Under the pieces are notes generated by a model. That model worked only from the letters and a program-made list of their open reading frames with translations. It was not told the DNA's origin and did no database searches. Position numbers and translations under genes: made by a program. Of a stretch of 64,000 nucleotides of DNA, positions 4,200 through 63,600 are shown piece by piece; position 1 is the stretch's first letter; each line of letters opens with the position of its first letter. Origin of the DNA: an uncultured Chloroflexia bacterium (GTDB lineage: Bacteria; Chloroflexota; Limnocylindria; Limnocylindrales; CSP1-4); NCBI GenBank assembly GCA_963778955.1, contig CAVZWI010000001.1, forward strand, positions 218,823 through 282,822, in the 5' to 3' direction.

Positions 4200-4878
4200 T
4201 CAGGCGGCACGCTCGATCCCGTCGATGATGAGGTCGAGCCCGAACTCGAAGGAGTCGCCGAAGTCGTAGCCGGGCCGGAGGACGTGCTCGGTCGTGAACT
4301 CGGCCAGGACCGGGTAGTCGGCCAAGCCCTCGCGAACCATGTCCGCGGCCATCTCCACGATCTCTCCCCTGCCGCCACCGGGCAGGTTGGCTTCCTGGAG
4401 CGCGAAACCGTAGAGGAAGCTGTCGATGATGGCGTAGGCGTGCGCAGTCAACTGTCGCGAGAGGCCGCCCCGCCGCAGGCAACCCAGCACGGCATCGTGG
4501 TGGCGCAGCGTCGCGGGACCCGGGTCGCGTCGCGATTCCATCAGCGGCGGCGCCCACGGATGGCGACGCAGGACCTGCCGGGCCGAGTGGCACCGTTCAC
4601 GGATCGCGTTCTGCCAGTCCATGTCGTGGGGCGGGAGGACGATCTGACCGAACACGACATCGACCATCCCGTCGATCGATCTTCTCCTTCGACACGATGT
4701 AGTGGTAGATGGTCATCGGCTTGACGTCGAGCGCCGCCGCCAAGCGCCGGATGGTGAAGTCCTCGATGCCGATCTCGTCGGCGAGTGCGACCGCCCCGAT
4801 GAGGACGCGGTCGTGAGAGAGGGCCGGTCGGTGCATCTCAGTCGTCATCGTCACGTTCTTCACGATCTCGGTCGTCAT
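4200..4878 (-). CDS. TetR/AcrR family regulator with TetR_C domain (apparent +1 frameshift at about 4677)
   Basis: HTH FTIRRLAAALDVKPMTIYHY in one frame continues as IDGMVDVVFGQIVLPP...FEFGLDLIIDGIER in another after removing one base. Confidence 0.85.
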
Positions 4879-4907
4879 CGTCTGTGTCCTATCGTCGATC
4901 TCACAGG

Positions 4908-4965
4908 TTGACATTTTCGTACTAAGTACGTTAGGGTTCGTCAGGTCAGGTCGTACTAAGTACGA
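4908..4965 (+). promoter_or_regulatory. Sigma70-type promoter overlapped by two TetR-type palindromic operators
   Basis: TTGACA at 4908-4913 and TAGGGT at 4932-4937 (18-nt spacer). CGTACTAAGTACG at 4918-4930 and TCGTACTAAGTACGA at 4951-4965 are odd-length palindromes between divergent tetR and oxidoreductase genes. Confidence 0.8.
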
Positions 4966-4991
4966 TAGCATCGAACGAAGGAGCCCACAGC

Positions 4992-6035
4992 ATGCAGGCA
5001 ACGACTCATCAGGACCCCGCCAAGACGGCGACCGCCATGGCAGGAGAGCGCACCGGGACCATGCGGGCCATCGTCCAGCGAGCGTACGGATCGACCGAGA
5101 CACTTCAGCTTGACGAGATCGCGCGTCCGGCCGTCGGGGCCGAGCAAGTGCTGGTGGAGGTCCGGGCGGCCGGTGTCGATCGCGGCACGTGGCACTTGAT
5201 GACGGGAAAGCCCTATCTCGTCCGGCTCTTGGGCTTCGGTCTCACGCGGCCCAGGAACCCAGTCCCCGGTGCGGATGTCGCCGGCAGGGTGGTGGCCGTC
5301 GGGTCGGACGTGGAGCGGTTCAAGGTCGGCGACGAGGTCTTCGGTATCGCCAACGGTTCCCATGCTGAGTTCGCCGTCGCCGATGCGGACAAGCTCGCGC
5401 AGAAGCCGGCGTCCCTTCCCTGGGAGGAGGCAGCCGTGGCGTCGGTCTCGGGCATCACCGCGCTCCAGGCTCTGACTGAGATCGGCAAGGTCGAGGCCGG
5501 CCAGCATGTCCTCGTGATCGGCGCGTCGGGAGGTGTCGGCAGCTATGCGGTCCAGATCGCGAAGGCGCTCGGTGCCCGCGTCACCGGTGTCGCCAGCGGC
5601 GCCAAGGCTGACCTTGTTCGTTCGCTCGGCGCCGATGCGGTCATCGACTATGCCCAAGGCGACTACCTCGACGGCTCGACCCGATTTGACCTGATCATCG
5701 ACATCGGTGGCCGGAACTCGCTGCGGCGCCTGCGGCGCGCCCTCAGGCAGCACGGCACGCTCGTCATCGTCGGCGGCGAAGGCGGCGATCGCCTGACCGG
5801 TGGGCTCGGCCGGCAACTGGGAGCCACGCTCCTGTCGCCGTTCGTCTCGCAGCGGATGACGATGTTCATCAGCAAGGAGCACTACCGCTACATCGAAGAG
5901 CTGGCGGGCTTCATCGAGCGGGGCGAGGTGACGCCGTCCGTGGGTCAGCGCTACCCCCTCGAGCAGGTGCCGCAGGCCATCGCAGACCTCGCCGCCGGAG
6001 AGGCCCAGGGCAAGTCGGCGATCGTCGTGCGCTGA
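4992..6035 (+). CDS. NAD(P)-dependent MDR-family oxidoreductase (quinone reductase-like, zinc-independent)
   Basis: GroES-like N-domain (VLVEVRAAGVD, PVPGADVAGRVVAVG), Rossmann motif VIGASGGVGSYAVQIAK, C-terminal GKSAIVV. Confidence 0.9.
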   Translation: MQATTHQDPAKTATAMAGERTGTMRAIVQRAYGSTETLQLDEIARPAVGAEQVLVEVRAAGVDRGTWHLMTGKPYLVRLLGFGLTRPRNPVPGADVAGRVVAVGSDVERFKVGDEVFGIANGSHAEFAVADADKLAQKPASLPWEEAAVASVSGITALQALTEIGKVEAGQHVLVIGASGGVGSYAVQIAKALGARVTGVASGAKADLVRSLGADAVIDYAQGDYLDGSTRFDLIIDIGGRNSLRRLRRALRQHGTLVIVGGEGGDRLTGGLGRQLGATLLSPFVSQRMTMFISKEHYRYIEELAGFIERGEVTPSVGQRYPLEQVPQAIADLAAGEAQGKSAIVVR

Positions 6036-6098
6036 GCGCGGAGGCGCCGCTGAGGCTGCTGACCGAGGCCGGCGTCGCATGTGTGCTACATTCGTCGC

Positions 6099-6350
6099 AT
6101 GACTGAGGTAGCGTCCCGCCAGCTGCGCAACGCCACCCGCGCCCTGCTGGATCGTGTCGCCGCCGGTGAGGACATCACCATCACCGTGGGCGGCAGGCCG
6201 GTCGCGCGGCTCGTGCCACCGGAGCCGCGGCAGCGCTGGATGTCCCGGGAGGCGTTCGCAAGCCAGGTCCTCGGCCACCAGGCGGATGCCGGGTTGGCGT
6301 CTGACCTCGCAGAGCTGGCGCCGGGTACCACCGACGACCTGCCCCTGTGA
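6099..6350 (+). CDS. vapB: Phd/YefM family antitoxin (VapB-type)
   Basis: MTEVASRQLRNATRALLDRVAAGEDITITVGGRPVARLVP is a canonical Phd/YefM N-terminus; overlaps the PIN gene by 4 nt. Confidence 0.88.
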   Translation: MTEVASRQLRNATRALLDRVAAGEDITITVGGRPVARLVPPEPRQRWMSREAFASQVLGHQADAGLASDLAELAPGTTDDLPL

Positions 6351-6736
6351 TCGAGCGCGGGCTGGCCGACACGTCGGTGTTCATCGCCCGGGAATCCGGT
6401 CGGGCCATCGACCTTGAGGCATTGCCCCAGCGGCTGGCCGTGTCAGTCGTGACCATCGGGGAGCTCCGGGCCGGCGTGCTGGCCGCCACCGACACCGCGA
6501 CCCGTGAGCGCCGCCTTGACACGCTCACCGCTGCCGTGGCACTGGATCCGATCGGAATCGACGTCTCGGTCGCGAACGCCTGGGCCAGCTTGCGGCTGGC
6601 ACTACGTGACCAGGGCCTGCGGATGCCCATCAACGATTCCTGGATCGCGGCTACGGCGATGGCGCTGGGCGTTCCCATCGTGACCCAGGATCACGACTTC
6701 CCGACGCTCGGCGAGCTGACGGTCATCCACGTCTGA
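6347..6736 (+). CDS. vapC: PIN-domain toxin VapC
   Basis: LADTSVFI, SVVTIGEL, INDSWIAATA and IVTQDHDF PIN motifs. Confidence 0.9.
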   Translation: MIERGLADTSVFIARESGRAIDLEALPQRLAVSVVTIGELRAGVLAATDTATRERRLDTLTAAVALDPIGIDVSVANAWASLRLALRDQGLRMPINDSWIAATAMALGVPIVTQDHDFPTLGELTVIHV

Positions 6737-6842
6737 CTGGATAGATGCGTGGCGGGGCTCCGCTGGATCAGGCTCGCAGCGCCACCGGTTCCACGTGGTT
6801 CGTCTGATATGCTCGCTCATCCTCCCCTGCCGCGCGAGCTTC

Positions 6843-7295
6843 ATGGCCAACGAAGACCTGCGACGACTGATCGCACCGCACGCGAACGACATCGGTGGCC
6901 CGGTCACCGCGCTCCGTACCCTCCAGCAGCATCGAGGCTGGATCGAGGACGAGGCGGTAGACACGGTCGCCGACGTGTTCAACCTGAGCCGGGCCGAGGT
7001 GCGCGGCCTGGTCGGCTTCTATGCGGACTTCCGGACCGCGCCACCGCCGGCCCACAGCCTGCGCGTCTGCCAGGCGGAGGCCTGCCAGGCAGCCGGCGCG
7101 CGCGAGCTGACTCGAGCCATCGGCGAACGACTGGGCATCGCGCTCGGTGAGACCACTCCGGACCAGCGCATCGGGCTCGAGAGCGTCTACTGCCTGGGCT
7201 TGTGCGCACGCGCGCCCGCGATGATGGTGGACGGAACGCTGGTGGTGGACGGCGATACCGCCGCCGAACGCATAGTGGATGGCCTCTTGGCGTGA
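6843..7295 (+). CDS. fdsG: NAD-dependent formate dehydrogenase gamma subunit (NuoE-like, 2Fe-2S)
   Basis: LSRAEVRGLVGFYADF; CQAEACQAAG and YCLGLC cysteine pairs. Confidence 0.88.
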   Translation: MANEDLRRLIAPHANDIGGPVTALRTLQQHRGWIEDEAVDTVADVFNLSRAEVRGLVGFYADFRTAPPPAHSLRVCQAEACQAAGARELTRAIGERLGIALGETTPDQRIGLESVYCLGLCARAPAMMVDGTLVVDGDTAAERIVDGLLA

Positions 7296-8753
7296 CCGAC
7301 CGCGTGTTCGTCCCGTCCGAAATCGGTCGCCAACGCACTGGGTGCTGACCAGGTCGCCGCTGCCTTGTCGGCAAGCGGAGGCGAGGTACGGCGCAATGGC
7401 TCGCGTGGTCTCCTCTGGGCCGAGCCGATGGTCGAGATGGAGCGCGATGGCCGCCGCATCGCCTTCGGAGCGGTCGGCCCCGACGGTCTGGACCAGTTGG
7501 ATGCGCACGAGCTGGGTGCCGTGGATGATCTCCTGGCCGGGCAGACGCGGGTGATCTTCGGCAGTTGCGGCACCTACGAGCCCACGGACCTGGACGGCTA
7601 TCGTACGCACGGCGGGTTCGGCACGCCCGACCTCACCCCGCAGCAGATCATCGATGAGGTCACCGTCGCCGGCCTACGCGGCTACGGCGGCGCGGGCTTC
7701 CCGGCCGGCATCAAATGGCAGGCCGCCGCCGACCAGCCAGCCGACCAGAGGTACATCGTGGCCAACGCCGATGAGGGCGACTCAGGCACGTTCTCAGACC
7801 GGCTCATCATGGAGGGCGACCCCTACCTGCTCATCGAGGGTATGCAGCTCGCCGGCCGTGCCATCGGTGCCACGCGCGGCGTCATCTACCTGCGCTCGGA
7901 GTACCCCCTGGCGGCGGCGGTCCTGGGCGAAGCCCTCGCGAACGCGCGTGCCGGCGGCATCCTCGGCGCCGACTTCGATGTCGACCTCTTCATCGGTGCC
8001 GGCGCCTATATCTGCGGCGAGGCGACGTCTCTGCTGGAGAGCCTGGAGGGCAAGCGTGGCGAGGTCCGCTCCAAGCCGCCGCCCATGGCGGTCAAGGGCC
8101 TGTACGGCAAACCGACCGTGGTGAACAACGTCATCACGCTCTGCGCGGTGCCCTGGATCGTACGTCACGGCGGGGCTGCCTACGCGAAGCTCGGCGTGGG
8201 CCGCTCGACAGGCACGATGCCCTTCCAGCTGGGCGGCAACGTCAAGCGCGGTGGCCTCTATGAGCTGGAGTTCGGGGTCACGCTCGGCGACCTGGTCGAG
8301 AAGTGGGGCGGCGGGACCCGCAGCGGCCGACCGGTTCGTGCTGTACAGGTCGGGGGACCGCTGGGTGCCTACCTGACGCCCGACCATTTCGACGTGCCCA
8401 TGACATACGAGGCACTGCGGGAGATGGGTGCCGACATCGGCCACGGTGGCGTGGTGGTCTTCGACGACAGCGTCGACATGGCAGAGCAGGCCCGCTACGC
8501 CTTCGAGTTCTGCGCCGAGGAATCGTGCGGCAAGTGCACGCCCTGCCGCATCGGCTCGGTTCGCGGTGAGGAACTGCTGCGCGAGATCATCGCCGATGGC
8601 CCCCGCGCCGACCGGCTCACGGTGCTCGACGACCTGTGTGCGGTGATGGAGGGATCGAGCCTGTGCGCGCTGGGCAGCATGACACCCAAGCCGGTCCGCA
8701 GCGCCCTGCGGCACTTCCCCGAGGACTTCGGGCTACTGGCGGAGGGCCGCTGA
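7292..8753 (+). CDS. fdsB: Formate dehydrogenase beta subunit (NuoF-like, FMN/4Fe-4S; apparent +1 frameshift at about 7320)
   Basis: GLRGYGGAGFPAGIKW, NADEGDSGTFSDR, GAGAYICGEATSLLESLEG and ESCGKCTPCRIG. GTG 7292 (VTDRVFVPSE) joins SVANALGADQVAAAL after removing one A. Confidence 0.88.
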
Positions 8754-8754
8754 C

Positions 8755-11584
8755 ATGCGATTGATCGAGACCGACTACGGCACGCCCCCGAGCGCGGTCG
8801 TTGGTACCGTCGCCCTGGAGATCGACGGCGTCCCCATCACTACCACGGCGGACACGTCGATCCTGCGCGCTGCGGCCGAGGTGGGCATCTCCATCCCCAA
8901 GCTCTGCGCCACCGACAGCCTGCGCTCCTTCGGCTCCTGTCGCATGTGCATGGTGGAGGTCGAGGGCCGGCCCGGGTTCAAGGCTGCCTGCACCGAGCCC
9001 GTCAGAGACGGTATGCGCGTGCGCACCCAGTCCGACGCCATCGCCAAGCTGCGTCGCGGGGTGATGGAGCTCTACATCTCCGACCATCCGCTCGACTGCC
9101 TGACCTGCTCGGCCAACGGCGACTGCGAACTGCAGGACGTGGCCGGTGCCGTGGGCCTGCGCGAAGTGCGCTACCAGGCGCCCGCCACGCACCTGGACCT
9201 GCCGACCGACGCCTCCAATCCCTACTTCGACTTCGATCCCAGCAAGTGCATCCTCTGCTCGCGCTGCGTGCGTGCCTGCGACGAGGTGCAGGGCACCTTC
9301 GCCCTGACCGTGCTGGGACGCGGCTTCGATTCGGCGATCGCCACCAGCGCGGCGGACTTCATGTCCTCTGACTGCGTCTCCTGCGGCGCCTGCGTGGCGG
9401 CCTGCCCGACCGCGACCCTGATGGAGAAGACCGTGATCGAGCACGGCGTGCCCGATCGGACGGTGCTGACCACCTGCGCCTACTGCGGGGTCGGCTGCTC
9501 CTTGAAGGCCGAGCTGAAGGGCGACCAAGTCGTGCGCATGGTGCCTTACAAGGACGGTAAGGCCAACCACGGCCACGCCTGCGTGAAGGGCCGCTTCGCC
9601 TGGGGCTACGCCAACCACAAGGACCGCATCACCGCGCCCATGATCCGCGAGACGACCGACCAGCCCTGGCGCGAGGTCTCATGGGAGGAGGCCATCGGCT
9701 TCGCCGCGGCAAGGCTCAAGGCCATCCAGGCCGAGCACGGTCGGTTTGCCGTCGGCGGCATCACCTCATCGCGCTGCACCAACGAGGAGGTGTGGCTGGT
9801 GATGAAACTGGTGCGCGCCGCCTTCGGCAACAACAATGTCGACACCTGCGCGCGCGTCTGCCATTCGCCCACCGGCTACGGACTGAAGCAGACGTACGGG
9901 ACCTCCGCCGGCACGCAGCACTTCGACTCCGTCGCTGGTGCCGACGTGATCATGGTCATCGGCGCCAACCCCACCGAGGCGCACCCGGTCTTCGCGTCAC
10001 AGATGAAGCGCCGCCTGCGCGAGGGCGCACGGCTGATCGTCGTCGATCCGCGCCGCATCGAGCTGGTGCGCTCACCGCACGTCGAAGCGGACGTGCACCT
10101 GCCACTGCGGCCAGGCACCAACGTGGTGCTGATGAATGCCTTCGCCCACGTCATCGTGAGCGAGGGACTGATGGACGACGACTTCGTGGAGGAACGCTGC
10201 GACCTGTCGTCGTTCCGCGAGTGGCTCGAGTTCGCGGCGCGCCCAGAGCACGCCCCGGAGACGGTGGCCGCTGAGATCGGCGTGCCCGCCGCGGATATCC
10301 GGACGGCGGCGCGACTCTACGCCACCGGTGGCAACGCCGCCATCTACTACGGGCTGGGCGTGACCGAACACAGCCAGGGCTCGACGATGGTGATGGCGAT
10401 GGCCAACCTCGCCATGGCCACCGGCAACATCGGCCGCTTCGGCGTCGGCGTCAATCCGCTGCGCGGCCAGAACAACGTGCAGGGCTCGTGTGACATGGGC
10501 TCGTTCCCCCACGAGCTACCCGGCTACCGGCCGGTCACCGACCCGGCGGTCCGGGCGGCATTCGATGAGCACTGGGGTGTGCGCGTCCATGACGAAGCCG
10601 GCTTCCGCATCCCCAACATGCTCGACGCCGCGGTCGCGGGAACCTTCAAGGGCATCTACATCCAGGGCGAGGACATCGCCCAGATCCGACCCCAACACGC
10701 AGCACGTGGAAGCGGCACTCGAGTCGATGGACTGCGTCATCGTCCAGGACCTGTTCCTCAACGAGACCGCCAAGTTCGCCCACGTGTTCCTGCCTGGCAC
10801 CTCGTTCCTGGAGAAGGACGGCACCTTCATCAACGCCGAGCGGCGCATCAACCGCGTGCGCCCGGTTTCGAAGCCGCTCACCGGCAAGGCCGAATGGGAG
10901 GTCACCCAGGACCTGGCGGTCGCGCTGGGCTATCCGATGCAGTACGAGTCCGCTTCGCAGATCCTCGATGAGATCGCTGCACTCACGCCATCGTTCGCCG
11001 GCGTCTCATTCGATTTCCTCGACGAGCACGGCAGCGTGCAGTGGCCGTGCAACGAATCAGCCCCGGGCGGCACGCCGATCATGCACGTCGATGAGTTCGT
11101 GCGCGGCAAGGGCCTCTTCGTGCTGACCGACTACCAACCGACCGAGGAGCGCGCCAACCGCAAGTTCCCGTTGTTGCTCACCACCGGGCGCATCCTCAGC
11201 CAGTACAACGTGGGTGCCCAGACGCGCCGGACGGAGAACATCCGCTGGCTCGAGCAGGACATGCTGGAGATCCATCCGGCCGATGCCGAGCTCCGCGGCA
11301 TCCACAGCGGCGACCTGGTCGCCGTCCAGAGCCGCAAGGGTGAGATCACGCTGCCGGCCACTATCAGCGAGCGAGTCGCGCCGGGCGTCGTCTACACCAC
11401 CTTCCATCATCCTGACACCGGCACCAACGTGGTGACCACCGAGCTCTCCGACTGGGCCACCGACTGCCCCGAGTACAAGGTCACCGCGGTCGAGGTGCGA
11501 CCGGCCAACCATCGTTCCGCGTGGCAGGAGGGTTTCGCCGTGCGCGCCCACGCCCAGGCCCGCCTGTTGCCGGTCGTCGAGTGA
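8755..11584 (+). CDS. fdsA: Formate dehydrogenase alpha subunit, molybdopterin-dependent (apparent +1 frameshift at 10684)
   Basis: N-terminal FeS motifs (GSCRMCMVE, HPLDCLTC, CILCSRCVRAC, CVSCGACVAAC), CAYCGVGC, active-site CARVCH (Cys, not Sec) and PLRGQNNVQG. EDIAQ-SDPNTQH is restored by deleting A10684. Confidence 0.92.
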
Positions 11585-11585
11585 G

Positions 11586-15448: not shown

Positions 15449-16220
15449 GTGTGGTGCGGCCGCGAGCAGGATCTCTATGCCCCGCTGAAGGCGTACTTCG
15501 AGGCGCAGGGCTACGAGGTGAAGTCAGAGGTTCGAGGCTGCGACCTCGTCGCCCAGCGGGGCGAGGAGTCGCCGCTGATCGTAGAGCTCAAGACGGGCTT
15601 CACGCTGCCGCTGGTGCTGCAGGGCATCGACCGGCTGGCCATCTCGGAGCACGTCTACCTGGCCGTCGCCGTGGCGGCACGACCGGCGCGCGGCTCCCTC
15701 TGGCGGCGCCGCCGCGGCGGCATCCTGAAGCTCTGTCGTCGCCTGGGCCTGGGGCTGCTCGCGGTGCATGAGCCGAGCCGGGGCAGACCGCCACTAGTGG
15801 AGCCCCTGCTGGACCCGTTGCCTTACCGGCCGCGTGCGGACCGCAAGCGCCAGGAACTGCTGCTCAAGGAGTTCGCCCATCGCGTCGGGGACCACAACGT
15901 CGGAGGCATGACGAGGCGACCCATCGTCACCGCCTACCGCCAGGTCGCCCTGGCCTGCGCCGTCCACCTTCGCGCGCACGGCCACAGCCGAGCAGCCGAG
16001 GTCGCTCGGGCCAGCGGTGTCGAGGGCGCCGGCAGCGATCCTGCGAGACGATGTCTACGGCTGGTTCGAGCGAGTCGAGCGCGGAGTGTACCGACTCTCA
16101 GCCGAGGGTGACGCAGCGATGATCACCTACGCGGATGTCATCGTCGACCTGGCGATGGCCGACCTGGCGATCGCCCAGGCAGACCCAGCATCGATGCCCG
16201 GCGGTCCGAAAGACACTTGA
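15449..16220 (+). CDS. DUF2161 family putative PD-(D/E)XK nuclease-like protein (apparent +1 frameshift at about 16035)
   Basis: EQDLYAPLKAYFEAQGYEVKSEVRGCDLVA...IVELK...LQGIDR, and the C-terminal ILRDDVYGWFERVERGVYRL in the next frame. Confidence 0.8.
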
Positions 16221-17302: not shown

Positions 17303-22684
<5,382 letters not shown>

Positions 22685-29474: not shown

Positions 29475-29868
29475 TCACGCAGCGGACGAGGATGGTTTGT
29501 TGTCTCGCTTGGCGCGGTTGGCCCGGCGCTTCTTGTTCGCCGCTTGACGCTTGCGACGGGACCTGAGCACGAACACGATGAGCCCGACTGTCAGCAGGGC
29601 CAGCCCGGCAGCGGCGACCGCGACCAGGATCGCCCGTTCTTCCTCGGGTGACCGGTCGTCCAGGGCATGCTCCAGATCCGAGCGCGCTTCCCCTTGCAGA
29701 TGCTCGACCTGTTCCTGGATCTGCCCGGATCGCTCCTCGCACGTCGTGCTCGATCCCTGCCACGGCCTCCTCCACGGCAGGTCCTCTCTCGGCGATCACA
29801 TCCTGGGCACGGCCCACGATGCTGCTGGCTGCCCGCTGGGCACGTTCGGCGCCGCTTGGTTCGATCAT
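29475..29868 (-). CDS. Small membrane protein with an acidic N-region, one TM helix and a basic tail (apparent +1 frameshift at about 29739)
   Basis: MIEPSG...GIEHDV continues, after removing one base, as EERSGQIQEQVEHL...AILVAVAAAGLALLTVGLIVFVLRSRRKRQAANKKRR...SSAA*. Confidence 0.6.
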
Positions 29869-31207: not shown

Positions 31208-32717
31208 ATGCCCTTCGCCTCCGCGTGGCAGCCGGACGCTGTCGTGCGTGCGGCCGTCCTGCCTGATGCATCTCGCTGGACGGTATGCGCCGGCTCGGAC
31301 GAACCGGTCGGCTGGGACCAAGAGGTCGAGTGCGCCACCCTGCAGGTGCCCCTCGACCATGCCGACCCAGGTTCGGGGACGATCGGGCTGCCGGTTCGAA
31401 GGATCCGAGCCCGCGATCGGGCCGAGCGCATCGGGGTGCTCGTGACCATCGACGGAGGACCCGGCCAACGTGGCACGCTCAGTGTCCGGCCGGGCGCCCA
31501 CACCGAGGCTATCGAGGACCGCTTCGACATCGTCAGCTGGGATCCTCGTGGCACGTCCGGTGAGACCGCCATCGACTGCATCCCCGAGTGGGACCCGTTC
31601 GTCGGCCTGGACCGCACGCCAGACACCGCCGCTGAACGCGAAGCGCTCGATGCGGCGACCGTTGGGCTGGCCTCGCGCTGTCAAGAGCGGCACGCAGACG
31701 TGCTGCCATACGTGGGGACGCTCGCGACCGCACTCGACCTCGAGTCGTTGCGCCAGATGCTCGATGAGCCGCAGATCAGCATCCTGGGCAGCTCATACGG
31801 ATCGGAGGTCGCAGTGACGTATGCCACGCTGTTTCCGGACCACGTCCGAGCCGTCGTCCTCGACGGTTACAGCGACCCCAACCGCTCGCCTGCTGAACGG
31901 GAGGTCGAGCAGGCAGCCGCGTTCGAACATGCTCTGCAGGACCTGCTCGCCCAGTGCGGGGACGACCCGCTGTGCCCCTTCGGGCAAGGCGGCGAGCCGG
32001 GGCCGGCACTCGACCGGCTGTTGACAGACTTGGACCGCGAACCGATGGCTGCTGGCGACGGGACGTGGTTGACGCAGTCCGATGCCTATGAAGCCATCGT
32101 CGGCTCCCTCACTCTCGACCACTCGGCACGCCGCCAGCTGCTCGAAGCCCTGGCAGCGGCAGAACATGGGGTCGGTGGGCCACTGCAGTCGATCGCGACG
32201 GCGGTACGACAGGCCTATGAAGCCAGTGGGCTCAACCAAGGCGCCTTCATGGCGATCTACTGCGCCGAATTCCGGAGCTTGGTGGCGGCGTCTGTCCGAC
32301 GCGGAGGTCGGCGACCTGGCAGATCGCGTGCGCGAGGTCGCGCCACGGTTGGGACGCTGGCTGTGGTCACCGCCCGGCGATCCCGACCTGCCGCCGATCG
32401 GACTGTGCGCGATGCAGGCTGAGCCGCCTGCGCCTCCCGACGTGCCCATCGACGCGGCCGGTGCCGGGCCCATCCTGGTGCTGGCGTCCAGCGGTGACCC
32501 GACCACGCCCCTCAGTGCCGCCCGTCACTCGCTCCAGGACCTGCAGGATGCCGAGCTGGTCACCCTCGAGGCGGACCAGCACCTCGCCTACCACTATGCC
32601 TTGAGCGACCCAGGGCGGGCGGCCTACCGCTGCCTCCTCGACGCCGTGGAGACCTACATGATCGACCTCGAAAGGCCGCCTACCGAGAAGGAGTGCGCTG
32701 ATGACCAGGGAACGTGA
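31208..32717 (+). CDS. Secreted alpha/beta-hydrolase, tripeptidyl-aminopeptidase (S33/TAP-like) family (apparent +1 frameshift at about 32268)
   Basis: ECATLQVPLDH, GGPG, DIVSWDPRG, nucleophile elbow GSSYGS, VRAVVLDG, then LVLASSGDPTTP and EADQH in the next frame. Confidence 0.82.
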
Positions 32718-35028: not shown

Positions 35029-35755
35029 CTAGGCGGCCGGGCTCGGTGACGGCGCATCGACATTCACGTCGACCGCACCCTGGTCGCCCACTTCGACCGT
35101 CACGGTGACGGTCCCGTCGCTGGCCGAGGCGTCAGGCGACATGGACTCGGTGGGCAGCATGGACTCGCTGGGCGACATCTGGTCGCCGGCCATGGCGGGC
35201 GAGTCGACGCTGGCGTCCTTCTGGGTGATCATGCTGTAGACGGCCGTGTTGCCATCACCGGTCTCCTTGAGCAGGGCGACGCCGACGTAGCCACTGGCGT
35301 TGAGCTCGTCTAGGCGGATCGACCATCGTGCCGTTGTCGAAGTCGATGCCACCTATATCGCCACAGGCGATATAGGTGCTCATGTCGGCATCACTCTGGT
35401 GGATGTTGATGGCATGCGGCGAGGCCGTGAGGTCGGCCAGCGTGGCCGCGACCACCGTCATGTTCAGGGCGACCTTCTGGTCGCTGATCCCGCCGAGCGG
35501 GTCGCCGCCGGCCGGCTCACCATTGACCATCAGGTCAGTCGAGATCTCACCCAGCGGGAAGACGATGTCGCCGAGCTGGTCGCAGGTACCAGCATGGATA
35601 TGCAACGGATGCGCCTGGCTGTCACCAGCCATCATGCTGTCTGAGGGCGCCGGGGAGGCGTCCTGGGCAAGCACGATGCCACTGCCCGCGAGCAGCGCCA
35701 TGGCCGTGAGACCGGCTGTACCGGTCAATGTCCTTTGAAGTCGTAGCAGGTGCAT
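35029..35755 (-). CDS. Secreted protein with a His-rich putative metal-binding domain (apparent +1 frameshift at 35320)
   Basis: Signal peptide then HPLHIHAGTCDQLGDIVFPL...HAINIHQS...YIACGDIGG; continues IRLDELNASGYVGVALL after removing one base. Confidence 0.7.
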
Positions 35756-37714: not shown

Positions 37715-38845
37715 CAGCGGACGAGCAGATCGGCCACGGCGACCAAACCGAGATCGGTGGCGACATCGCGGGTAGGCCAGGCGCCGGCCAACGTGAGGAC
37801 GCGTCCGCCATCGGTCGTCGACAGCGTCGTCTCCTCCTTCTTGGCCCCGGGCAGCGTGATGAACCAGTTGAAGAGGCCATGCTCGGGGATGGTGTCCGCG
37901 GGTCGCGTGACGTGGGCGATATCGCAGTGGATGAAGCCGGTCTGGCCGCCCTGCCAGTGGTCGTGCCAGGCATCCCGATAGCCGTGCCGCGCATAGCGCT
38001 CGCGCTGTCCGGCCAGCATCTCCGCATAGCTCACGCCCGGGCGCGTCATGGCCACGCTCCAGGCTTCCACCGCGCTCACGACACCGAAGCGATCGATCAA
38101 CTCGTCGCTCGGGCGGACCAAGGCTGGCCAGCCGCGTGAGGATGGCGTGCTGCCCCCAGCGGTTCACGGTGGGATGGAAGAAGGCCAGCGATCGCAGACG
38201 CGCACCGTGCGGTAGCGGATGGCGATAGCGGGTGATGCGGTCGTCGAAGCCGACCATCATCTCGTCCACCGTCAAGCCCTCGCGCAGATAGGTCGCGGTC
38301 AACGATGCCGCCACCTCGTTCTCACTGACACCGGGCTCCAGGGCGTCGGCAGCCGCGCGCAGGCCGGCCTCCAGGCGCGCGCTGATCCACTCGGCACGAC
38401 GCAGCTCCAGCGACGTCAGCGGATACTGCGCGCGGCGCAGATGATCGTCAGCCGGCTCGGTGCCGGGCAGGTCGCAGTCAGACAGGATGCGCCCCTCCCC
38501 GGCCAGGCGGAGGGCGGCCGACTCGGGCGTGCCTTCGTCCCAGCGTACCGCCACCACGTCCACGCCGTCGGGCAGCTCCTCCTCGGCGAAGCGGCGCGCG
38601 TCCATGGCCCAGGTGACGACGGTGCGAGCACCGCGTCGGACCACGACGTAGCCCCATGCGCGCTCGCTGGAGACCTTGATGCCCAGCTCGGCACCGCACA
38701 GCGACCAGGCCGCGTGCCCGGCCTGCCCAAGGATCAGGGCATCGGCAGCGGCGTCATCGAGGAGGGAGTCGAGTTGCTGGAGGCGCGCAGCGTGGTCGGC
38801 TGCGGTCGCCTCCAGGAGTCGGGCATCAGGCGTGACTCGCCGCAA
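37714..38845 (-). CDS. M24 (pita-bread) fold protein lacking most metal ligands (apparent +1 frameshift at 38110)
   Basis: Creatinase-like N-domain; RYRHPLP, HAILTRLASLG, HWQGGQTGF and FNWFITLPGAKKEET segments. Confidence 0.7.
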
Positions 38846-38936
38846 CTGTACCCAGTCGTGATGGTGGTCAGTGACGCCAGATGCTCAAGGGGGCGTGGCG
38901 AGCACCTCATCTCGCAGTCCACCGTCGCGCCGACCC

Positions 38937-41332: not shown

Positions 41333-42987
41333 CTAGGGCTGGACTTGCTCGGGCGCGGTGTCGTACGTCGCGGACCAGACGGCACCGGTGGAGCTGAGCT
41401 GACTCCGACAGTGCCTGCAGGCACTGTCCTGAGAGGAATGACTCGATCGAGCAGTTCTGCCCCTGGGGTGCCGTGAGGCCCATGCCGTTGAACTGCGTGA
41501 CCTGGGCGGAGGGCGGATCGTGCGGCAGCGGCAGGGTCGGGTCCGTCGACTGCGGGCAGGGTGCACCGGCTGTGACGGAGTTGGGACTCAGCGAGTCCGG
41601 CCACGTATCGTTGGGCCCCTTCTCACGGACGACCAGCAGGTTGGGCGCCTTGTTGTTCTGGACCCCGCTGCGAAGGATGTTCCAGCCGTTCGCCTTGACC
41701 ACCGCGTCGATCTTCTCGACCTGTTGGCTGGTGGCCGACTGCGGGTAGAGCACGATCGTGGCGCTGCCGTCGGCGTTGAGCTCGATCTGGCGGTTGCCGA
41801 TTCTGCGTGTTCTTGACGGTGCCCAGCGCATCGAGCTGCTTGGTTGCGCCGTAGACAACGACGCTGTAGAAGCGCAGGTCGTACTGGTCAGAGTCGTTGA
41901 CCGTGGAGGCCGTCGCGCCCCGGTAGTCGGGGAACGTCGGCACCTGGGGGATGTGCACCATCGAGACCACGTCGTTGGGCAGGTTGGCCATGACGTAGCC
42001 ACCACAGGCGTCGGGCGGATCACTCGTGGGCGGTGCTGCTGCGACATCAGCGTACGGAGAGTTGGCCGCGACGTTCCGGTAGAACTGGACTTGCTCCGGG
42101 ACAGGCGCGGGTGCGAACTCCCCGCCGAGGAAGCCAGCCACCGAACCGGTCTGCAGCTTGAAGCGCGGGACGTTGGCCAGGTCGTCACTGGTCGGACGAG
42201 GCGCCTTGACGAAGGTGAGGACCGGCTTGCCCGTGACCGGGTCGTACGCGATGCGCTTGGGCACCTGGCTCTGGGAGGCGCAGTCGTCGACAGGCGTGTC
42301 GGTGATCTCGCCGGTATCGGGGTCCGTCAGGAACGCGGCGATGGTGTGGACGGGCGAGTCGGTGGGCCCGCCATAGCCGAAACGATCCCAATCGCCGAGG
42401 TCGTCGTTGGAAAGCGACCAGTAGCTGCGAAAGACGAAGGACGTACCCTTGGTGCTGCCGATCTCGGGCAGGACGGCCACGTTCTCACCCGCCTCCTGCA
42501 TGGCGGTGATGACGCTATCGGGTGTGTCATTCGGCATGACCGTGATCTTGTAGTTGCGCTCTGGAGCCAGGATGGGTTGGCCCGACACGAAGGGGTTGGT
42601 GGAGCCGGGCTCCGGGATGATGTCCTGGTCGGACAGCTTGAACAGCGGCTGCCCCTTGGTGTTGTACAGGTACCAGGACATCCAGTAGGAATAGGGGAAC
42701 TCACCGCTGATCACATAGGCCCAGTCAGCGGTGTCATCGTTCAGCTTCTGGCCGGCGAGAGTGTAGCCGGCCGAGAAGCTTGGCTGCACGGGGTAGAAGT
42801 CGGCGGAGGATGCGTCCAGCACCTGCGGGCACAGGTTGCCCGCAGGGACCGAGCCGCCACTGTCGGTGGATGCGGCCGGCGGCGACGGGTCGGCTGCCGT
42901 GGCGGGCACTGCCGACAGGGCGAGCAGCAGCACCGCCGAAGCGGTGAGGGCGAACGATCGGTGGCCTGCTGGCCGAATCCTGCGCAT
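41333..42987 (-). CDS. Secreted protein, possibly DUF1214-like at the C-terminus (two apparent +1 frameshifts, at about 41801 and 41402)
   Basis: Signal peptide MRRIRPAGHRSFALTASAVLLLALSAVPATA; GEFPYSYWMSWYLY...DIIPEPGSTNPF; FYSVVVYG and IELNADGSATIVL. Span 1655 nt equals 551 codons plus 2. Confidence 0.7.
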
Positions 42988-46137: not shown

Positions 46138-46258
46138 CACGGACAGTATGGCCGACCTGGCCGGTCGAATCGCGGAGCATCGGCTATCCGAAGCGGTCCA
46201 GACACGCTCAGCCGTCCGGCATGCTGGCGCGGTGGAGCGCCTCGGAACCTGGGCCGGA

Positions 46259-49163
46259 TCGAGCCGGCGGCGCCGGCTCCGACCGCCTGTGCATTGTGCT
46301 GCGCGTGGAGCTTGAGCTCGTCCGCCTGGATCATCGGCTTCAAGTCGAAGACGACGTTCTTGACGGTGCCGGTGAACGCGTATGGGGCCCTGTCCTCGTA
46401 GGCGAGATCGACGACGCCGCCGTTGTCACGACCGATGTCCATACCGGCATAGGTGGTGAAGATCAGCGAGACCGTCTTCTCCAGGCGACCTTCGCCGATC
46501 TGCTTGTCGTTCGCCCAAAGCGTCACCCGGCCACCCGCGGCGTGCTCTGTCGAATCCGCTTCGAACAGCATCTTGACGGTGACCGCTCCGGTGGGGATGG
46601 GCTCGGTCGAGGTCTGCTTGTAGGTCTCGATGCCGAGGTACTGGTAGGTGTGGTTGAGCAGGCCCTTCTCGTCGACCCACAGGGCGAAGCCCCCGATGAA
46701 GTCGGCGAAGGCCACGAGGACACCCTCGGCGCCATCGGCCGGCACATCGACGTTCGCCTCGATGGCGTACGAGCGCCCGTAGATACGGGGGATCATCGAG
46801 GTCTGGATGTTCTGGACATCGCCGGCGTAGTTGAACCGGGTGATGGTCGGCAGCGGTGGCAGATCGCCCATCCACACCGAGAAGGGCGCCAGCAGCGGCA
46901 GCACGTGATTCCGCTCGGCCTCTTCCCAGAACAGGTCCTGCAGCTCCTTGAGCTTCTCGGGGTTCTCGGCGGCCAGATTCCTGGCCTGAGAGAAGTCGTC
47001 GGGCAGGTAGTAGAGCTCCCAGACGTCATCGTCTGTGCTGTACTTGCCAGGGGCGAAGCGGGCCAGGGTCTCCGGCGTGAAGTCCCAGGGAGCCTTGTCC
47101 AGCTTGGTGCAGGCCCACCAGCCGTCCTTGTACATCGCCCGGCTGCCGAGCATCTCGAAGTACTGAACGCTGTGCCGCTCCTCGGCCTTCGGCTCATCGA
47201 AGGTGTAGAGGAAGCTGGTGCCGTCCATGGGCTCCTGCTCGATGCCGTCGACCATGCTGGGCGCCGGGATGCCGACCGCCTCGAGGATCGTGGGAACGAT
47301 GTCGATGCAGTGGGTGAACTGCTCGCGCAGGTCACCGCCAGCCGGGATATGCCCCGGCCAGGCCACGACCATCGGGTCGCGGGTGCCCCCCAGGTGGCTG
47401 GCCATCTGCTTGCCCCACTGGAACGGCGTGTTGTTGGCGTGGGCCCAGGCAGCCGCGAAGTGCGGCGCCGTGTGGAAGCCGCCGAGGGCCTCGATGCCAC
47501 CGAACTTCTCGATGATCTTCAGCTGCTGGTCGGCGTCGAGGATGGCGCCATTGAAGAAGGTCGTCTCGTTGAACGAGCCCGTCAGGGTGCCTTCCATGCT
47601 GGAGCCGTTGTCACCCCAGATGTAGATGATGAGCGTGTTCTCCAGGTCGCCCATCTCCTCGATGGCGTCGAGCAGGCGGCCGATGTTCCAGTCGGCGTTC
47701 TCAGAATAGCCCGCGAAGACCTCCATCTGGCGCGCATAGAGCTTCTTCTGGGCATCGGTGAGTGAGTCCCAGGCCGGGAAGAGCTCGGGCCGCTCACTCA
47801 ACTCGGTGTCCTGCGGGACCACGCCGAGCTGCTTCTGGCGCTCCAGCGTAGCCTCACGGTACGCGTCCCAGCCCTCGTCGAACTTGCCCGCGTACCTGTC
47901 CGCCCACTGCTTGGCGACATGGTGGGGCGCGTGACTGCAGCCGGTGGAGTAGTACATCATCCAGGGCTTCTCGGAGTCCTGCGCCCGGACCGCGTGCAGC
48001 CACTCGACGGACTTGTCGGTGATGTCGTCGGGGAAGTAGTACTCGTGGCCGTCCTTGCCCTGGGGCACCCCGATGGTGGTGTTGTCCACGGTGATGATGG
48101 GGTCGTACTGCCCGGCTGCACCGGTGAGGAAGCCCCACCAATGGTCGAAGCCCCAGGACTGGGGCCAGTGGTCGAAGGGGCCGGCCGCGCCCATCTGGCT
48201 CCCCGGGGTCAGGTGCCACTTGCCGAAGCCACCGGTGACGTAGCCGTTCTCCCGCAGGATCCGGGGCAGGGCCGTGCAGCTCCGAGGTCGTTCACCGGTG
48301 TAGCCGGGATACGGAGCGGGCAGCTCAGCGATGGTGCCCATGCCCACGCGATGGTGATTGCGACCGGTGAGCAGCGCGGCCCGCGTGGGCGAGCAGACGG
48401 CGGTCACGTGGAAGCGGTTGTAGGTCAGGCCCATCTGCTGGACGCGGGTCAGGGTCGGGGTGGAGATGCCACCACCGAAGGTGTCCGGGCCACCGAAACC
48501 GGCGTCGTCGATGAGCACGACCAGCACGTTGGGTGCGCCTTCGGGGGCCTTGGGGCTGGGCATGATGGTCCAGTCGCCGACGGACTGGTCCAGCGTGCGG
48601 CCCATGGTGCCGCCGAACTTGCGGTCGGGGATGGGCAGCACGGTCCGGTCGGGCTTGAACTTGCCCATCGCCTCCATGAGGGAGTCCTTGAGCGCCGCGG
48701 TGCCCTTCTTGTCGGTCTGGACGACGGACTTCAGGAGTGAGCCCGAGAGTGACTGCTCGACAGCCAGGCGCTGCCCCTCGTCGAACTCGGCGATGATGGC
48801 TGCCGAGCCGGACGGCAGCGCCTCTCCGATCTTGTCGTGGAACCCCGCTGCCAGCTTGTGGTCGGCGAACTTGCCGACGATGGCGCCGCCGGCTGCGCCG
48901 ACGACGGTCGCAGCCAGCAGTGGTGGCGCCGCGAGGCCGACCAGGAAGCCCACGCTGCCGCCCCACTTGGCACCAGTGCGACCGAGATGGTCGCCGGTCT
49001 GCTGGACGACGACGTTGCCGTCCGTGTCATGGGTGATGAGGATGGCGGCCTCGATGGCGACGGAATTCGCCTGTACCTTCTCGATGAGCGCATCGAAGTC
49101 GGTGGTCGCGGTGGCCACGTCTTGGTAGCCGGCGACGAGAACGTCAGTGAGTTCCTGAGCCAT
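46259..49163 (-). CDS. atsB: Arylsulfatase with an N-terminal DUF1269-like domain (AtsB-type); true stop probably disrupted by an inserted base at 46261
   Basis: PNVLVVLIDDAG, formylglycine motif CSPTRAALLTG, FGKWH, GCSHAPHH and WGDNG. Protein ends QAVGAGAAG, followed by T(C)GA. Confidence 0.88.
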
Positions 49164-56778: not shown

Positions 56779-56809
56779 GCCCTTCCACACCGTGGGAACT
56801 CAAGAACCC

Positions 56810-57535: not shown

Positions 57536-57658
57536 CAGTGTCTCCTCGGGGTGTTCGTGTTGCGACGTTGATACCACTATCTGCAAGCCGCATGGGTCCC
57601 GGGCCGTCGCGGCGGCTACCCTGAAGAAGTCACATCGAGAGCGCATGCGAGGGACCTG

Positions 57659-59299: not shown

Positions 59300-59714
59300 G
59301 GCCCACCCGGAGGCACACCGGGACCTGATCGTGCGCGTCTAGGGTTGGAGCGGCTACTTCTGCGAGTTCTCGCCCGAGTACCAGGACCACGCCATCGCTC
59401 GCCGCACTCAAGTCGTGCAGCCGACCGATTCGGGATCCGGCGTCCAGCTGGCACGAATCCCAGATAGAGCGAACACGAACGGTCCATCTGGGCCGTTGCC
59501 GCCCGTGGCCCGACCGCCTACGCCTGCCACGCAGCCGTCGCCGCCGTCGAGTGGGGACTCCCATGCCCGCGGGGGCATGATCCGGCACCCTCTCCGAGGC
59601 CGACCGGGCTGATCCCCACCAGAAGCCCCGCCTACCGCGCGAATCTGTTCGCTCTATCTGGGTAACCGGCCAGATAGTGGACGAACGACGCTGGGATCAT
59701 GAGCCCGGACTCGC

Positions 59715-60800
59715 TCAGCCGCCGGCTCCTGCAGCAGGCGGAGGCCCGGTGGAGTCGCGCACCACGAGCTCCGCCTGAAAGACCGGGTGCAGGTCCATCA
59801 CAGGCTGGGCGGCTCGGTCGAGCAGGCCGATGGCGATGTCCATGGCGGCGGTGACCATGGCCCGCACGGGCATGCGCATGGTCGTCAGCGGCGGCATGAT
59901 GACATGGGCACCCGGGATATCGTCGATGCCGGTCACCGAGACATCCGCCGGCACCCGGAGCCCACGCTGAAGCGCAGCGTGCACCAGACCGATGGCCTGG
60001 ACATCGGTCGCACCGACGATGGCCGTGGGTGGATCGTCCAGGCTCATCAGGTGATGCAGCGCCTCGATGCCGCCTTCGTATTCGTTCACGGTGTCCGGCA
60101 TGTACTCGGGTCGGACTCGCCAGCCGCGCTGCCTGAGGAACGCCTCGTAGGCCTCTTCGCGTTCCACGATGTCACCCAGCAGCTTCCTGCCGACGAAGGC
60201 GATGCGCTCGTGGCCGAGCGATGAAAGGTGCCCCATCACTGTCGTGATGGCGGCGCGATTGTCCACGTTGACGGTGGGGATGACGGTCGAACGCGAACCG
60301 TGCCAGAGCGCCACGACCGGCTCACGCGTGCTCTCGAGTCCCTCGATGAGCGCGGGCTGATCGCTCAGGTCGCCGAGCAGCAGGATGGCGTCGCAGTGGC
60401 GTGATTCCAGGATGGCCCACAGTTCGACCGCTTCGCCCGCACTCCCCTGGGCGTGGCCCAGCACGACGTTGTAGCTGTGCCGGCGAGCTTCGGATGTGAC
60501 AGCCTCGATGATGGCGGGGAAGCTGGGGTCGGTGATGTCACGGATGACGGCGCCGAGCAGCATGGTGCGCGCACCCATGAGGCCGCGCGCCAACGGGTTG
60601 GGTCGATAGCCGAGGCGCTTGGCCGTCTCCAATACCCGTTCGCGGGTAGCCGCCGCGATGGGGATGGCGGTGGGAGCGTCACTCAAGACGCGTGAGACGG
60701 TCGATTGCGAGACCTGGGTGGCCTCAGCGATATCGCGCATCGTGGGCACACCCGAGGCGACGCTCGCGGACACCGCGGGCGGGCTGCCCTCGGGACCCAT
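59715..60800 (-). CDS. LacI family transcriptional regulator
   Basis: HTH TMRDIAEATQVSQSTVSRVLS, LGYRPNPLARGL, VNVDN, LGHERIAF, DVSVTGIDD and PPLTT. Confidence 0.93.
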   Translation of the reverse strand: MGPEGSPPAVSASVASGVPTMRDIAEATQVSQSTVSRVLSDAPTAIPIAAATRERVLETAKRLGYRPNPLARGLMGARTMLLGAVIRDITDPSFPAIIEAVTSEARRHSYNVVLGHAQGSAGEAVELWAILESRHCDAILLLGDLSDQPALIEGLESTREPVVALWHGSRSTVIPTVNVDNRAAITTVMGHLSSLGHERIAFVGRKLLGDIVEREEAYEAFLRQRGWRVRPEYMPDTVNEYEGGIEALHHLMSLDDPPTAIVGATDVQAIGLVHAALQRGLRVPADVSVTGIDDIPGAHVIMPPLTTMRMPVRAMVTAAMDIAIGLLDRAAQPVMDLHPVFQAELVVRDSTGPPPAAGAGG

Positions 60801-60881
60801 CTGAACTCGCCGACCAGCTCGTGCCATCGATACCCTCGTTCCTCCGACTCCCCATCCTAGCGGCCCGGTCTCATATCCTGC

Positions 60882-60919
60882 TTGACGTCCTTACATGCGC
60901 TTGCATACAATCGCTTGCA
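60882..60919 (+). promoter_or_regulatory. araA promoter with two tandem LacI-type operators
   Basis: TTGACG at 60882-60887 and TACAAT at 60906-60911 (18-nt spacer). TACATGCGCTTGCA (60892-60905) and TACAATCGCTTGCA (60906-60919) each have a central CG. Confidence 0.75.
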
Positions 60920-60965
60920 GTCATGGGGACTTGGGCCTGCTCAGGCCCAGGAGAGGGGGTTCGGG

Positions 60966-62469
60966 ATGGCGTTCGATGGGCTGCGGATCTGGTTCCTGAC
61001 AGGCAGCATCCACTACTACGACGATGCGACCCGGCAGAAGGTCGCCGAGCAATCCACGCTCATCGTGCGTGGGCTCCAGGCAACTGCTCGAGATCCCCGT
61101 CGAACTCGTCCAGCTGCCGACACTGCTGGACCCCGACGCCATCCGCCGGGCCTGCCTCGAGGCCTCCGCCGACGATGCCTGTATCGGGGTCATCGGCTGG
61201 ATGCACACGTTCAGCCCGGCCAAGATGTGGATCGCCGGGCTGCAGGCGCTCTCGAAGCCCTTCCTGCACCTCCACACCCAGTACGGTGCCGACCTGCCCT
61301 ACGGCGACATCGACATGGACTTCATGAACCTCAACCAGTCGGCCCACGGGGACCGCGAGTTCGCCTACCTCATGACGCGGCTGCGCCTGCCCCGCAAGAT
61401 CATCGCCGGCCACTGGGCCGACCCGGTGGTGCAGCGGCGCATCGGCGCCTGGAGCCGTGCCTGTGCCGGCGCCCACGAGGCCCGCCACCTGCGCGTCATC
61501 CGCTTCGGCGACAACATGCGCGAGGTGGCCGACACCGACGGTGACAAGGTCGAGGTGCAGGCGAGGCTGGGGACCTCGGTCAACACCTACCCGGTCAACG
61601 AGCTGGTGGCGGTGGTGGAGCAGGTGGGCGATGCCGAGGTCGAGCGGCTCTGTGCCGAGTACGACGACGCCTACACCGTCGTGCCGCAGCTGCGACCCGG
61701 TGGCGAGCGTCGTGGCTCGCTGCGTGATGCCGCCCGCATCGAGCTGGGCCTGCGGGCCTTCCTGGCCGACCACGGCGCCATGGCCTTCGTCGACACCTTC
61801 GAGGACCTCGGCGGCCTCCGGCAGCTGCCCGGCATCGGCGCCCAGCGCCTGATGGCCGACGGCTACGGCTTCGGGGCCGAGGGTGACTGGAAGTCCTCGC
61901 TGCTGGTGCGCATCGTGAAGGCCATGAGCGAGGGCCTGCCCGGTGGTGTCAGCTTCATGGAGGACTACACCTACGACCTCGGGGCCGCCAGTCCGGCCAT
62001 CCTCGGCGCGCACATGCTGGAGGTCTGTCCGAGCATCGCCGCCGAGACCCCCAGTTGCGAGATCCACCCGCTCTTCGTGGGTGGCCGCGAGGACCCGGTG
62101 CGACTCGTCTTCTCTGGCGCTGCCGGGCCGGGCGTCGTGGTCGGGCTCGTCGACCTGGGCACGCACCTGCGACTGGTGGCGAACGCGATCGACGCGGTGG
62201 CACCACCCGCCGAGTTGCCGGCGCTGCCGGTGGCCCGGGCGCTGTGGGAGCCGCGACCCGACTTCACCACATCAGCCGAGGCCTGGCTGCTCGCGGGTGG
62301 CCCCCACCACACCGCCTACTCCCAGGCCGTCGACCTCGAGGTCATCGAGGACCTCGCCCGCATGCTCGACGTGGAGCTGCTGGCCATCGATGCCGACACC
62401 ACCACCCGGGCCTTCGCCAAGGAGGTGCGCTGGAGCGCCGCCTACCGGCACCTGGCCGGGGCGGTATAG
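60966..62469 (+). CDS. araA: L-arabinose isomerase (apparent +1 frameshift at 61089)
   Basis: [69 protein letters not shown] and GGPHH; 500 codons once one base is removed. Confidence 0.93.
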
Positions 62470-62633
62470 GGGGGACGTTCGACAAGCTTGCAGATGACAG
62501 CTTGCAGGTAGAGGAGGTGACCCACAGGACCACGACGAACGAGATCACGAGGTGGAAACGGATGGCTACATCCGAGCAACCACGGTGAAGACAGAAGCGT
62601 GGCCGAAAGGCTACGAGGATGGAGGATCGACTC

Positions 62634-63600
62634 ATGCGACGACTTGGTGTCAGTTCGGCTGTCATGGCGGCAGCAGCACTGGTGGTAGCGATGGTGCCCG
62701 CGGGCGCGGTCGCACAGGACGGCCCGGTCATCGGGCTTTCCGTCAAGACCATCACCAATGACCCCTTCCAGGCTGCCTGGGTCCAGGCGGCGACGGACAC
62801 GGTCGAGGGACTCGGGGGCACGGTCCAGCTCCTGGTGGCCGGCGGGCAGACTGCGGTCGCCAGCCAGTCGAGCCAGCTCGAAGACCTCGTCACCCAGCAG
62901 GTCGACGGCATCATCGTGAGCCCACTCGATGGAATCCGCGGTCCTGCCCGCACTGCAGAAGGCCAAGGATGCCGGTGTCCCGGTCATCCTGGTCGACCAG
63001 CCCATCGCGGCCGGCAACGAGGCGCTCTACGAGACCCTCATCGCGACCGACAACGTGAATGCTGGGCGCGAGCTGGCCACCTACCTCGTCACGGCGATGC
63101 CCGACCCTGAGCTCAAGGTCGCCATCATCGAGGGCGCACCCGGCTCGGTGGCCGGCGATGACCGTCTTGCCGGCTTCATCGAGGGCCTGGCCTCGGGCGG
63201 CATCACGCCGGTCGCCTCCGCCACCGGCGGGTGGGACAACGCCGTGGCCCTGGCCGCGATGGAGAACATCATCACCGCCAACCCCGACCTCCAGGCCGTC
63301 CTCTCCGCCAGCGACGTCATGGTCGACGGCATCCTGCAGGCACTCGCCGGTGCCGGCAAGACCGACGTGGCGGTCCTCGCCATCGACGGTTCCACGGTCG
63401 GCATCCAGGGCGTCCTTGACGGCAAGCTCCTGGCTGACAACACCCAGGACCCCATGGCGATGGGCTCCATGGCGGCCGAGTTCGCCGTGGGCATCGCCAA
63501 CGGTGAGATCGAGCCCGGCTCGCTCGACAAGTACATCGACTCGGGCACCACGACGGTGACGATCGACAACGCCGAAGAGGCCATGGCGAAGGCCTTCTAG
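62634..63600 (+). CDS. Sugar ABC transporter substrate-binding protein, RbsB-like (apparent +1 frameshift at about 62933)
   Basis: Signal peptide, ITNDPF, QVDGIIVSP, AGVPVILVD, IATDNVNAG, DDRLAGF and VLAIDGS. Confidence 0.88.

Follow-up and report, generated by a model that had tools for sequence, protein, structure and literature searches.

Why should genes that are otherwise intact be broken, fourteen times within 64,000 nucleotides, by one and the same kind of lesion? The stretch that raises this question (the window) is C1:218823-282822 of genome G000, an assembly of 3.25 Mb in 4 contigs with 68% G+C and an estimated completeness of 84%. A contiguous but incomplete assembly of this sort is characteristic of long-read metagenome-assembled genomes (MAGs) with indel errors, and G000 is most likely a long-read MAG built from Nanopore reads only. 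An earlier note on the window had counted fourteen +1 frameshifts and read them not as pseudogenes but as context-dependent long-read errors. That observation was real and its interpretation correct, but what it describes is an assembly artefact and not biology. We consider it highly probable that the 14 frame breaks are consensus errors of a long-read MAG at GATC, with DNA modification as the probable cause. Taking the parts separately, it is close to certain that the breaks are an artefact of assembly and not mutations, and a GATC-directed DNA modification is, on sequence grounds, the slightly favored cause.

Two syntenic genomes of the same genus, G001 (87-95% identity) and G010 (~86%), cover almost the whole window, and the sites were checked using pairwise BLAST gap lists and three-way MAFFT alignments of the window, G001 and G010. 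All 14 breaks were single extra bases, as had been claimed (Table 1). At 12 of them, alignment to one or two same-genus genomes with an intact frame confirmed the extra base; the remaining sites are 46261, backed by the stop codon of G001, and 38110, backed by frame analysis only. The coordinates first reported held overall, except that the site in the small membrane gene, placed at 29739, was found 13 nt away at 29724-26. Besides the single 1-bp insertions, the broken genes contained no in-frame stops or other lesions, and the signature of a pseudogene (stops, larger indels, several lesions per gene, loss shared or graded among relatives) was not seen at the window sites.

The effect of removing the extra base can be followed in individual genes. 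For fdsA, the sequence of the relatives is CAG-TCG GAT CCC (Q S D P), and the window without its extra A reads CAG TCC GAC CCC, likewise QSDP; the sugar-binding gene without its A reads GGA TCC GCG (G S A), equal to the relatives' GGC TCG GCC (G S A), both genes being translated by eye. At 46261 the extra G destroys the TGA stop of the sulfatase gene, and the open reading frame extends to 45960. The sulfatase of G001 ends in ...GAGAAG* (TCA on the plus strand); the window has GGATCGAGCC, and the stop is restored by GGATCAGCC. Adjoining this site, at 46142-46262, G001 carries ~1.5 kb of additional DNA, a real difference in gene content. The gene broken at 38110 was named M24 in the earlier note, and its sole family match is a weak, sub-threshold one to Creatinase_N. 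Directly downstream, the same long minus-strand open frame encodes a complete AMP_N + Peptidase_M24 aminopeptidase, which is a separate gene without a break. The GATC nearest to the 38110 break is GATCGATC (~38089-38097), 12-15 nt off. The interval 37739-38924, occupied by this broken gene, is without a counterpart in G001 and G010 and represents another real difference in gene content. Among the gene names, sulfatase (PF00884) and the sub-threshold Creatinase_N were confirmed here, and the remaining names are those of the earlier note.

The window is a sample of a genome-wide condition. Frame switches on the same strand were sought with a Viterbi detector based on codon usage, which picks up 10 of the 14 sites in the window; it returned 345 insertion-type and 114 deletion-type candidates (~460) across G000, a ratio of ~3:1. 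Motif enrichment among indels had been expected genome-wide and was found: a GATC no more than 12 nt away accompanied 56.5% of the insertion-type candidates as compared to 17.5% of background windows, and GAATC or GATTC was present at 16.5% versus 1.7%. Candidates per 10 kb had a mean of 1.39 and a variance of 1.66, which is near-Poisson, and candidate counts per 10 kb showed no correlation with GATC density in G000. The density of insertion-type candidates was 101 per Mb in G000 versus 13 per Mb in syntenic G001, a difference of ~8-fold. The near-Poisson spread, this difference and the intact frames of the relatives bear out the view that the broken genes are not pseudogenes. Approximately a fifth of G000 genes are split by false frameshifts.

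Isolated single-base gaps were tallied against contig C6 of G001 (672 kb), of which 538 kb aligned to G000. Relative to G001, G000 had 133 isolated 1-bp insertions and 52 deletions. A GATC context accompanied 64% of the insertions versus 11% of 5000 control positions, TCGATC or GATCGA was found at 28% versus 2%, and no palindromic 4-mer other than GATC was enriched at insertions in the 538 kb. An insertion was present at 43 of 3499 G001 GATC sites (1.2%), ten-fold over the baseline of 0.12%. By flank, the insertion rate was 2.5% at RGATCY, 1.5% at mixed sites and 1.3% at YGATCR, and every NGATCN class was affected. The 96 insertion events with well-matched flanks comprised TGATC>TCGATC (11), GATCA>GATCGA (5), GATC>GANTC (12), others 0-4 nt from GATC (19, four of them GATCGC>GATCGAC), insertions that created a GATC, mostly yielding TCGATC (13), insertions at GAWTC (4) and events unrelated to GATC (32). 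Some of the deletions in G000 were the inverse event, CGATC>GATC. There was no clear excess of substitutions at GATC between G000 and G001 (ratio 1.08, with other 4-mers at 0.86-1.23; 1068 versus 912 by direction).

The earlier note had sorted the sites into two sequence contexts, an inserted C or G creating TCG or TCGA and an A inserted after G and before (N)TC. As a description this was accurate, but the contexts are not independent: they are one, GATC. Under the criterion also used for the 538 kb (a GATC no more than 7 nt away in either genome, or a GAATC or GATTC in G000), 12 of the 14 window sites had a GATC context versus 11% of control positions (binomial ~2e-10). With the relatives standing in for the true sequence, TGATC>TCGATC, whose equivalent on the opposite strand is GATCA>GATCGA, accounts for the TCG/TCGA class, and GATC>GAATC, GATTC or GACTC, in which the base is inserted in the middle of GATC, for most of the "GANTC" class. 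Of the three motifs that had been suggested (GATC, GANTC and TCGA), GATC alone therefore stands in full. TCGA was rejected as an independent motif, since without GATC it occurred at 16 of the 133 insertions (12%), the same as its background of 12%. GANTC (CcrM-type) as a second motif was mostly rejected, since GAATC, GATTC and GACTC derive from GATC plus one base; only 4 of the 96 events started from GAWTC, and in the window site 7320, and possibly 32268, are of this kind.

Table 1. Single-base frame breaks in the window and DNA methylases found in G000. Contig names (C1, C2) mark positions in G000; all other positions are those of the window.
Feature	Position	Strand	Extra base	Context	Comparison or setting
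tetR-like gene	4676..4681	minus	C at 4677	TCGATC; TGATC>TCGATC	G001 GTCGAT-GATCTT
fdsB	7319..7324	+	A at 7320/21	GAAATC; GAWTC-type, not GATC	G001 and G010 GAATC
fdsA	10683..10686	+	A at 10684	Creates GATC; AGTCC>AGATCC	
DUF2161 gene	16036..16040	+	C at 16036/37	CGATC, extra C 5' of GATC; GGATC>GCGATC	G001 AG-GATCC
glgE	21312..21317	minus	C at 21313	TCGATC; TGATC>TCGATC	Four relatives CT-GATC or CT-GACC
Small membrane gene	29724..29731	minus	C at 29724-26	CCC then GGATC; extra C in CC run directly 5' of GGATC	
Hydrolase gene	32267..32272	+	A or T at 32268	GAATTC	Relatives GATC: GCCG-ATCGGG / GCCGA-TCAGG
His-motif gene	35317..35322	minus	C at 35320	GATCGA; GATGAC>GATCGAC	G001 GGAT-GACC
Gene named M24 (38110)	38100..38126	minus	Placed only to this interval	Frame switch between ...LASLGPP and SDELIDRF...	
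Secreted-protein gene	41401..41405	minus	C at 41402	GACTC, extra C inside GATC	G001 (93% identical here) CTGA-TCCG
Same secreted-protein gene	41799..41803	minus	T at 41801	GATTC, extra T inside GATC	G001 CCGA-TCTG
Sulfatase (PF00884) stop	46257..46262	minus	G at 46261	GATCGA; GATCA>GATCGA	
araA	61088..61095	+	At 61088/89	TCGAGATC; 3-4 nt 5' of GATC	Relatives GC-CGAGATCC
Sugar-binding gene	62932..62936	+	A at 62933	GAATC; GATC>GAATC	
C5 cytosine methylase	C1:1412411-1413700				Flanked by Vsr, BglII-family nuclease and AspBHI-like nuclease
Beta-class N6/N4 methylase	C1:1388726-1390513				Found across genus
Beta-class N6/N4 methylase fused to Mrr-like nuclease domain	C2, ~463 kb				Unique to G000 among 31 relatives

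Four MAGs of the Microflora Danica Nanopore project served as a cross-organism control: G008 (MFD00905.bin.2.47) and G016 (MFD06714.bin.2.115), both noisy long-read MAGs of the same genus, a gammaproteobacterial MAG (G151) and an acidobacterial one (G149, MFD05537.bin.1.91), the last scanned at contig C4:100001-500000. These data were obtained with R10.4.1 chemistry, the SQK-LSK114 kit and FLO-PRO114M flow cells, and were processed with Guppy 6.2.1-6.5.7 in super-accurate mode, Flye and a single round of Medaka, with the Guppy version and the sampling rate (4 kHz, 5 kHz) varying among samples (PMC12313526). GATC was strongly enriched at the insertion-type candidates of G000 (37/68 versus 85/408, p = 3e-8) and at those of none of the four others: G008 (85 insertion-type candidates per Mb, p = 0.31), G016 (239 per Mb, p = 0.36), G151 (198 per Mb, p = 0.72) and G149 (102 per Mb; 8/41 versus 70/246, p = 0.92). 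By arithmetic from the candidate densities, the GATC-linked excess was ~43 per Mb in G000 versus ~5-7 per Mb in G008 and G016. G149 carries a strong Dam gene, and is a probable Dam-methylated genome without GATC-linked insertions. Its insertion-type candidates were instead enriched at GTAC (12/41 versus 12/246, p = 1e-5), foremost at AGTAC and GGTAC, which suggests that this organism modifies its DNA at GTAC. The hot-spot motif is organism-specific within one Nanopore project, to which G000 presumably belongs and in which software versions vary. Such specificity favors DNA modification over a fixed sequence bias, and lends indirect support to the earlier suggestion that the error pattern may act as a fingerprint of the host epigenome. 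As a separate observation, contig C4 of G016 showed a weak enrichment of GTAC at its frameshift candidates (10/94 versus 28/564, p = 0.03).

Three methylases were found in G000 that could supply a mark (Table 1). The nuclease beside the C5 cytosine methylase belongs to PF09195 (BglII family), with BstYI as its best solved relative, followed by BamHI. BglII, BstYI and BamHI are all cutters of hexamers with a GATC core. With its PF09195 nuclease, C5 methylase and Vsr, G000 resembles a restriction-modification system of the BglII/BstYI/BamHI type, which would be a plausible source of 5-methylcytosine (5mC) within a GATC-containing site. The resemblance does not extend to the flanks: a BglII/BstYI-type system predicts errors limited to RGATCY, and this was unsupported, as RGATCY was affected at 2.5% and all other flanks at 1.3-1.5%. 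Many genomes of the genus carry the C5 methylase system, G001 and G008 among them; G010 and G016 lack it. The defence cluster in which it stands (C1:1410900-1415100) consists of Vsr, the BglII/BstYI-family nuclease, the C5 methylase and an AspBHI-like nuclease (RE_AspBHI_N + Mrr_cat), the gene for the last of which is frameshift-split into two overlapping frames. The AspBHI family is 5mC-dependent, and a methylase adjoining a methyl-dependent nuclease is unusual. GATC density was 10.5 per kb on contig C4 of G016 (observed/expected 1.02) versus 5.9-6.6 per kb in G000, G001, G008 and G010 (observed/expected 0.76-0.82 where computed). A link between GATC depletion and the C5 system was considered and dropped: G016, without the system, is GATC-rich, but G010, also without it, has the density of G000. 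The fused beta-class methylase on C2 lies in a 12-kb island of lower G+C (C2:456000-468000; 0.61-0.66) that has 0-3 GATC per 2 kb versus ~12 and an IS630-like transposase at its edge. It remains a candidate only as the cause, with several breaks in its gene and a GATC-poor island around it.

A mechanism consistent with these results can be proposed. Reads of G000 would carry a raised rate of one-base insertions at and beside GATC, and at modest coverage the consensus would retain the wrong call at ~1-3% of GATC sites. The typical products would be TGATC>TCGATC (read from the opposite strand, GATCA>GATCGA) and GATC>GA[N]TC, and genome-wide these would amount to several hundred frameshifts. The mark would be one for which the basecaller or polisher lacked training. 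It is probably not N6-methyladenine (6mA) of the Dam type; candidates are 5mC, or N4-methylcytosine (4mC) or 6mA, from one of the three methylases. The C5 methylase/BglII-family system would supply 5mC or 4mC, and the mark could otherwise come from one of the two beta-class N6/N4 methylases. We regard as evenly balanced the further proposal that this soil bacterium of the Limnocylindria type marks GATC, in all flanks, with a non-Dam modification, and that, more broadly, the contexts of residual insertions in Nanopore-only MAGs (GATC in G000, GTAC in G149) reveal the methylation motif of each organism from its assembly, with no need of raw signal.

Several known kinds of assembly error bear on this proposal. 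Classic indels of long-read MAGs are errors of homopolymer length, and mostly deletions; the errors of G000 differ from them in that insertions outnumber deletions ~3:1 and approximately two thirds lie at GATC, not in homopolymers. G000 is closer to the indel-fragmented long-read MAGs assembled with Flye and Medaka (PMC12313526), being contiguous, less complete and rich in genes split by 1 bp whose relatives are intact. Systematic errors induced by modification have been documented in R10.4.1 reads and assemblies by work on strand-specific mismatches, with GATC among the motifs (PMC11610603), and have affected outbreak tracing with Nanopore R10.4.1 data (PMC11610573). G000 is like these published cases in its short, organism-specific motif, in the survival of the errors through polishing, and in the difference between organisms under the same sequencing.

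The principal alternative to a modification is that the combination of basecaller, sampling rate and polisher applied to this sample was weak at GATC, with no modification needed. We rate it as unlikely, although a number of facts weigh against a modification and several speak for this alternative directly. In published work, the errors that modification induces in R10.4.1 data consist mainly of C>T and G>A substitutions (PMC11610603), unlike the one-base insertions of G000, which affect 1-3% of motif sites and come with no clear substitution excess. The project mixes Guppy versions and 4 kHz and 5 kHz data and polishes with one Medaka round, and the platform and project membership of G000 are themselves ones that we infer. 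The earlier note had looked to the host methyltransferases and to dnd genes for the source of a mark. Methylases were indeed found, but in G000, at 84% completeness, there was no match to the Dam families PF02086 (D12-class) and PF05869 (phage Dam), to the type I/IIG N6 methylases (PF02384) or to DndC (TIGR03183), and the idea of a dnd backbone modification is not sustained. PF02086 is present in 7 of 121 genomes of the class, and Dam is rare class-wide. None of the three methylases found in G000 has a proven GATC specificity. The orthologue of the C5 methylase in G008 is 80% identical and G008 has no GATC signal, and the gene of the C2 methylase is interrupted in the assembly by an in-frame TGA and no fewer than 3 frameshifts. 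Set against these points, four MAGs of the project, with 85-239 insertion-type candidates per Mb, lack GATC enrichment and one of them shows GTAC; a pure software bias would need to shift its motif from sample to sample, and the GATC-linked excess of G000 is far from that of G008 and G016.

That the extra bases are real mutations, arising from recent gene decay or from GATC-directed mutagenesis (e.g. nicking at GATC with subsequent error-prone repair), we hold to be very improbable. The deposited sequence does contain the bases, and an enzyme acting on GATC could in principle produce such motif specificity, but no organism would survive at least ~460 breaks that extend to core metabolic genes such as fdsA, fdsB, glgE and araA, the affected genes have no other lesions, and the combination of low completeness and high contiguity is what an indel-ridden long-read assembly typically shows. 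Hundreds of single insertions spread evenly over otherwise intact genes, with relatives in frame, argue for an artefact and against both decay and recoding. Programmed ribosomal frameshifting or other recoding at GATC-containing sites could account for a stereotyped sequence context; its probability is nevertheless minimal, because orthologues in relatives are single-frame at these exact places, the breaks fall at non-homologous positions in unrelated genes, no slippery heptamer is common to the sites, and at 46261 it is a stop codon that is destroyed.

G000 is a species representative in a public collection, and its gene calls, pseudogene counts, completeness and pathway inferences are distorted by these errors. 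The errors are predictable (GATC, and mostly TGATC>TCGATC or GATC>GANTC), and could be flagged or repaired by targeted polishing. If a modification is indeed the cause, modification-linked errors include insertions, beyond the substitutions that have been published. The organism-specific motif suggests that, across thousands of MAGs built from Nanopore reads alone, error contexts could serve as a cheap guide to methylation motifs.

Two minor features were noted in addition. At window positions 6829-6831, upstream of fdsB and away from GATC, CCCCTGCC stands opposite CCCC-AAC in G001 and G010; this extra base is probably intergenic, and could be a real difference or an error in the C run. At G000:C1:505824-511246, BLAST against G001 gave a ladder of matches at an offset of 402 bp, which indicates a long tandem array of 402-bp units, ~13 copies, in both G000 and G001.

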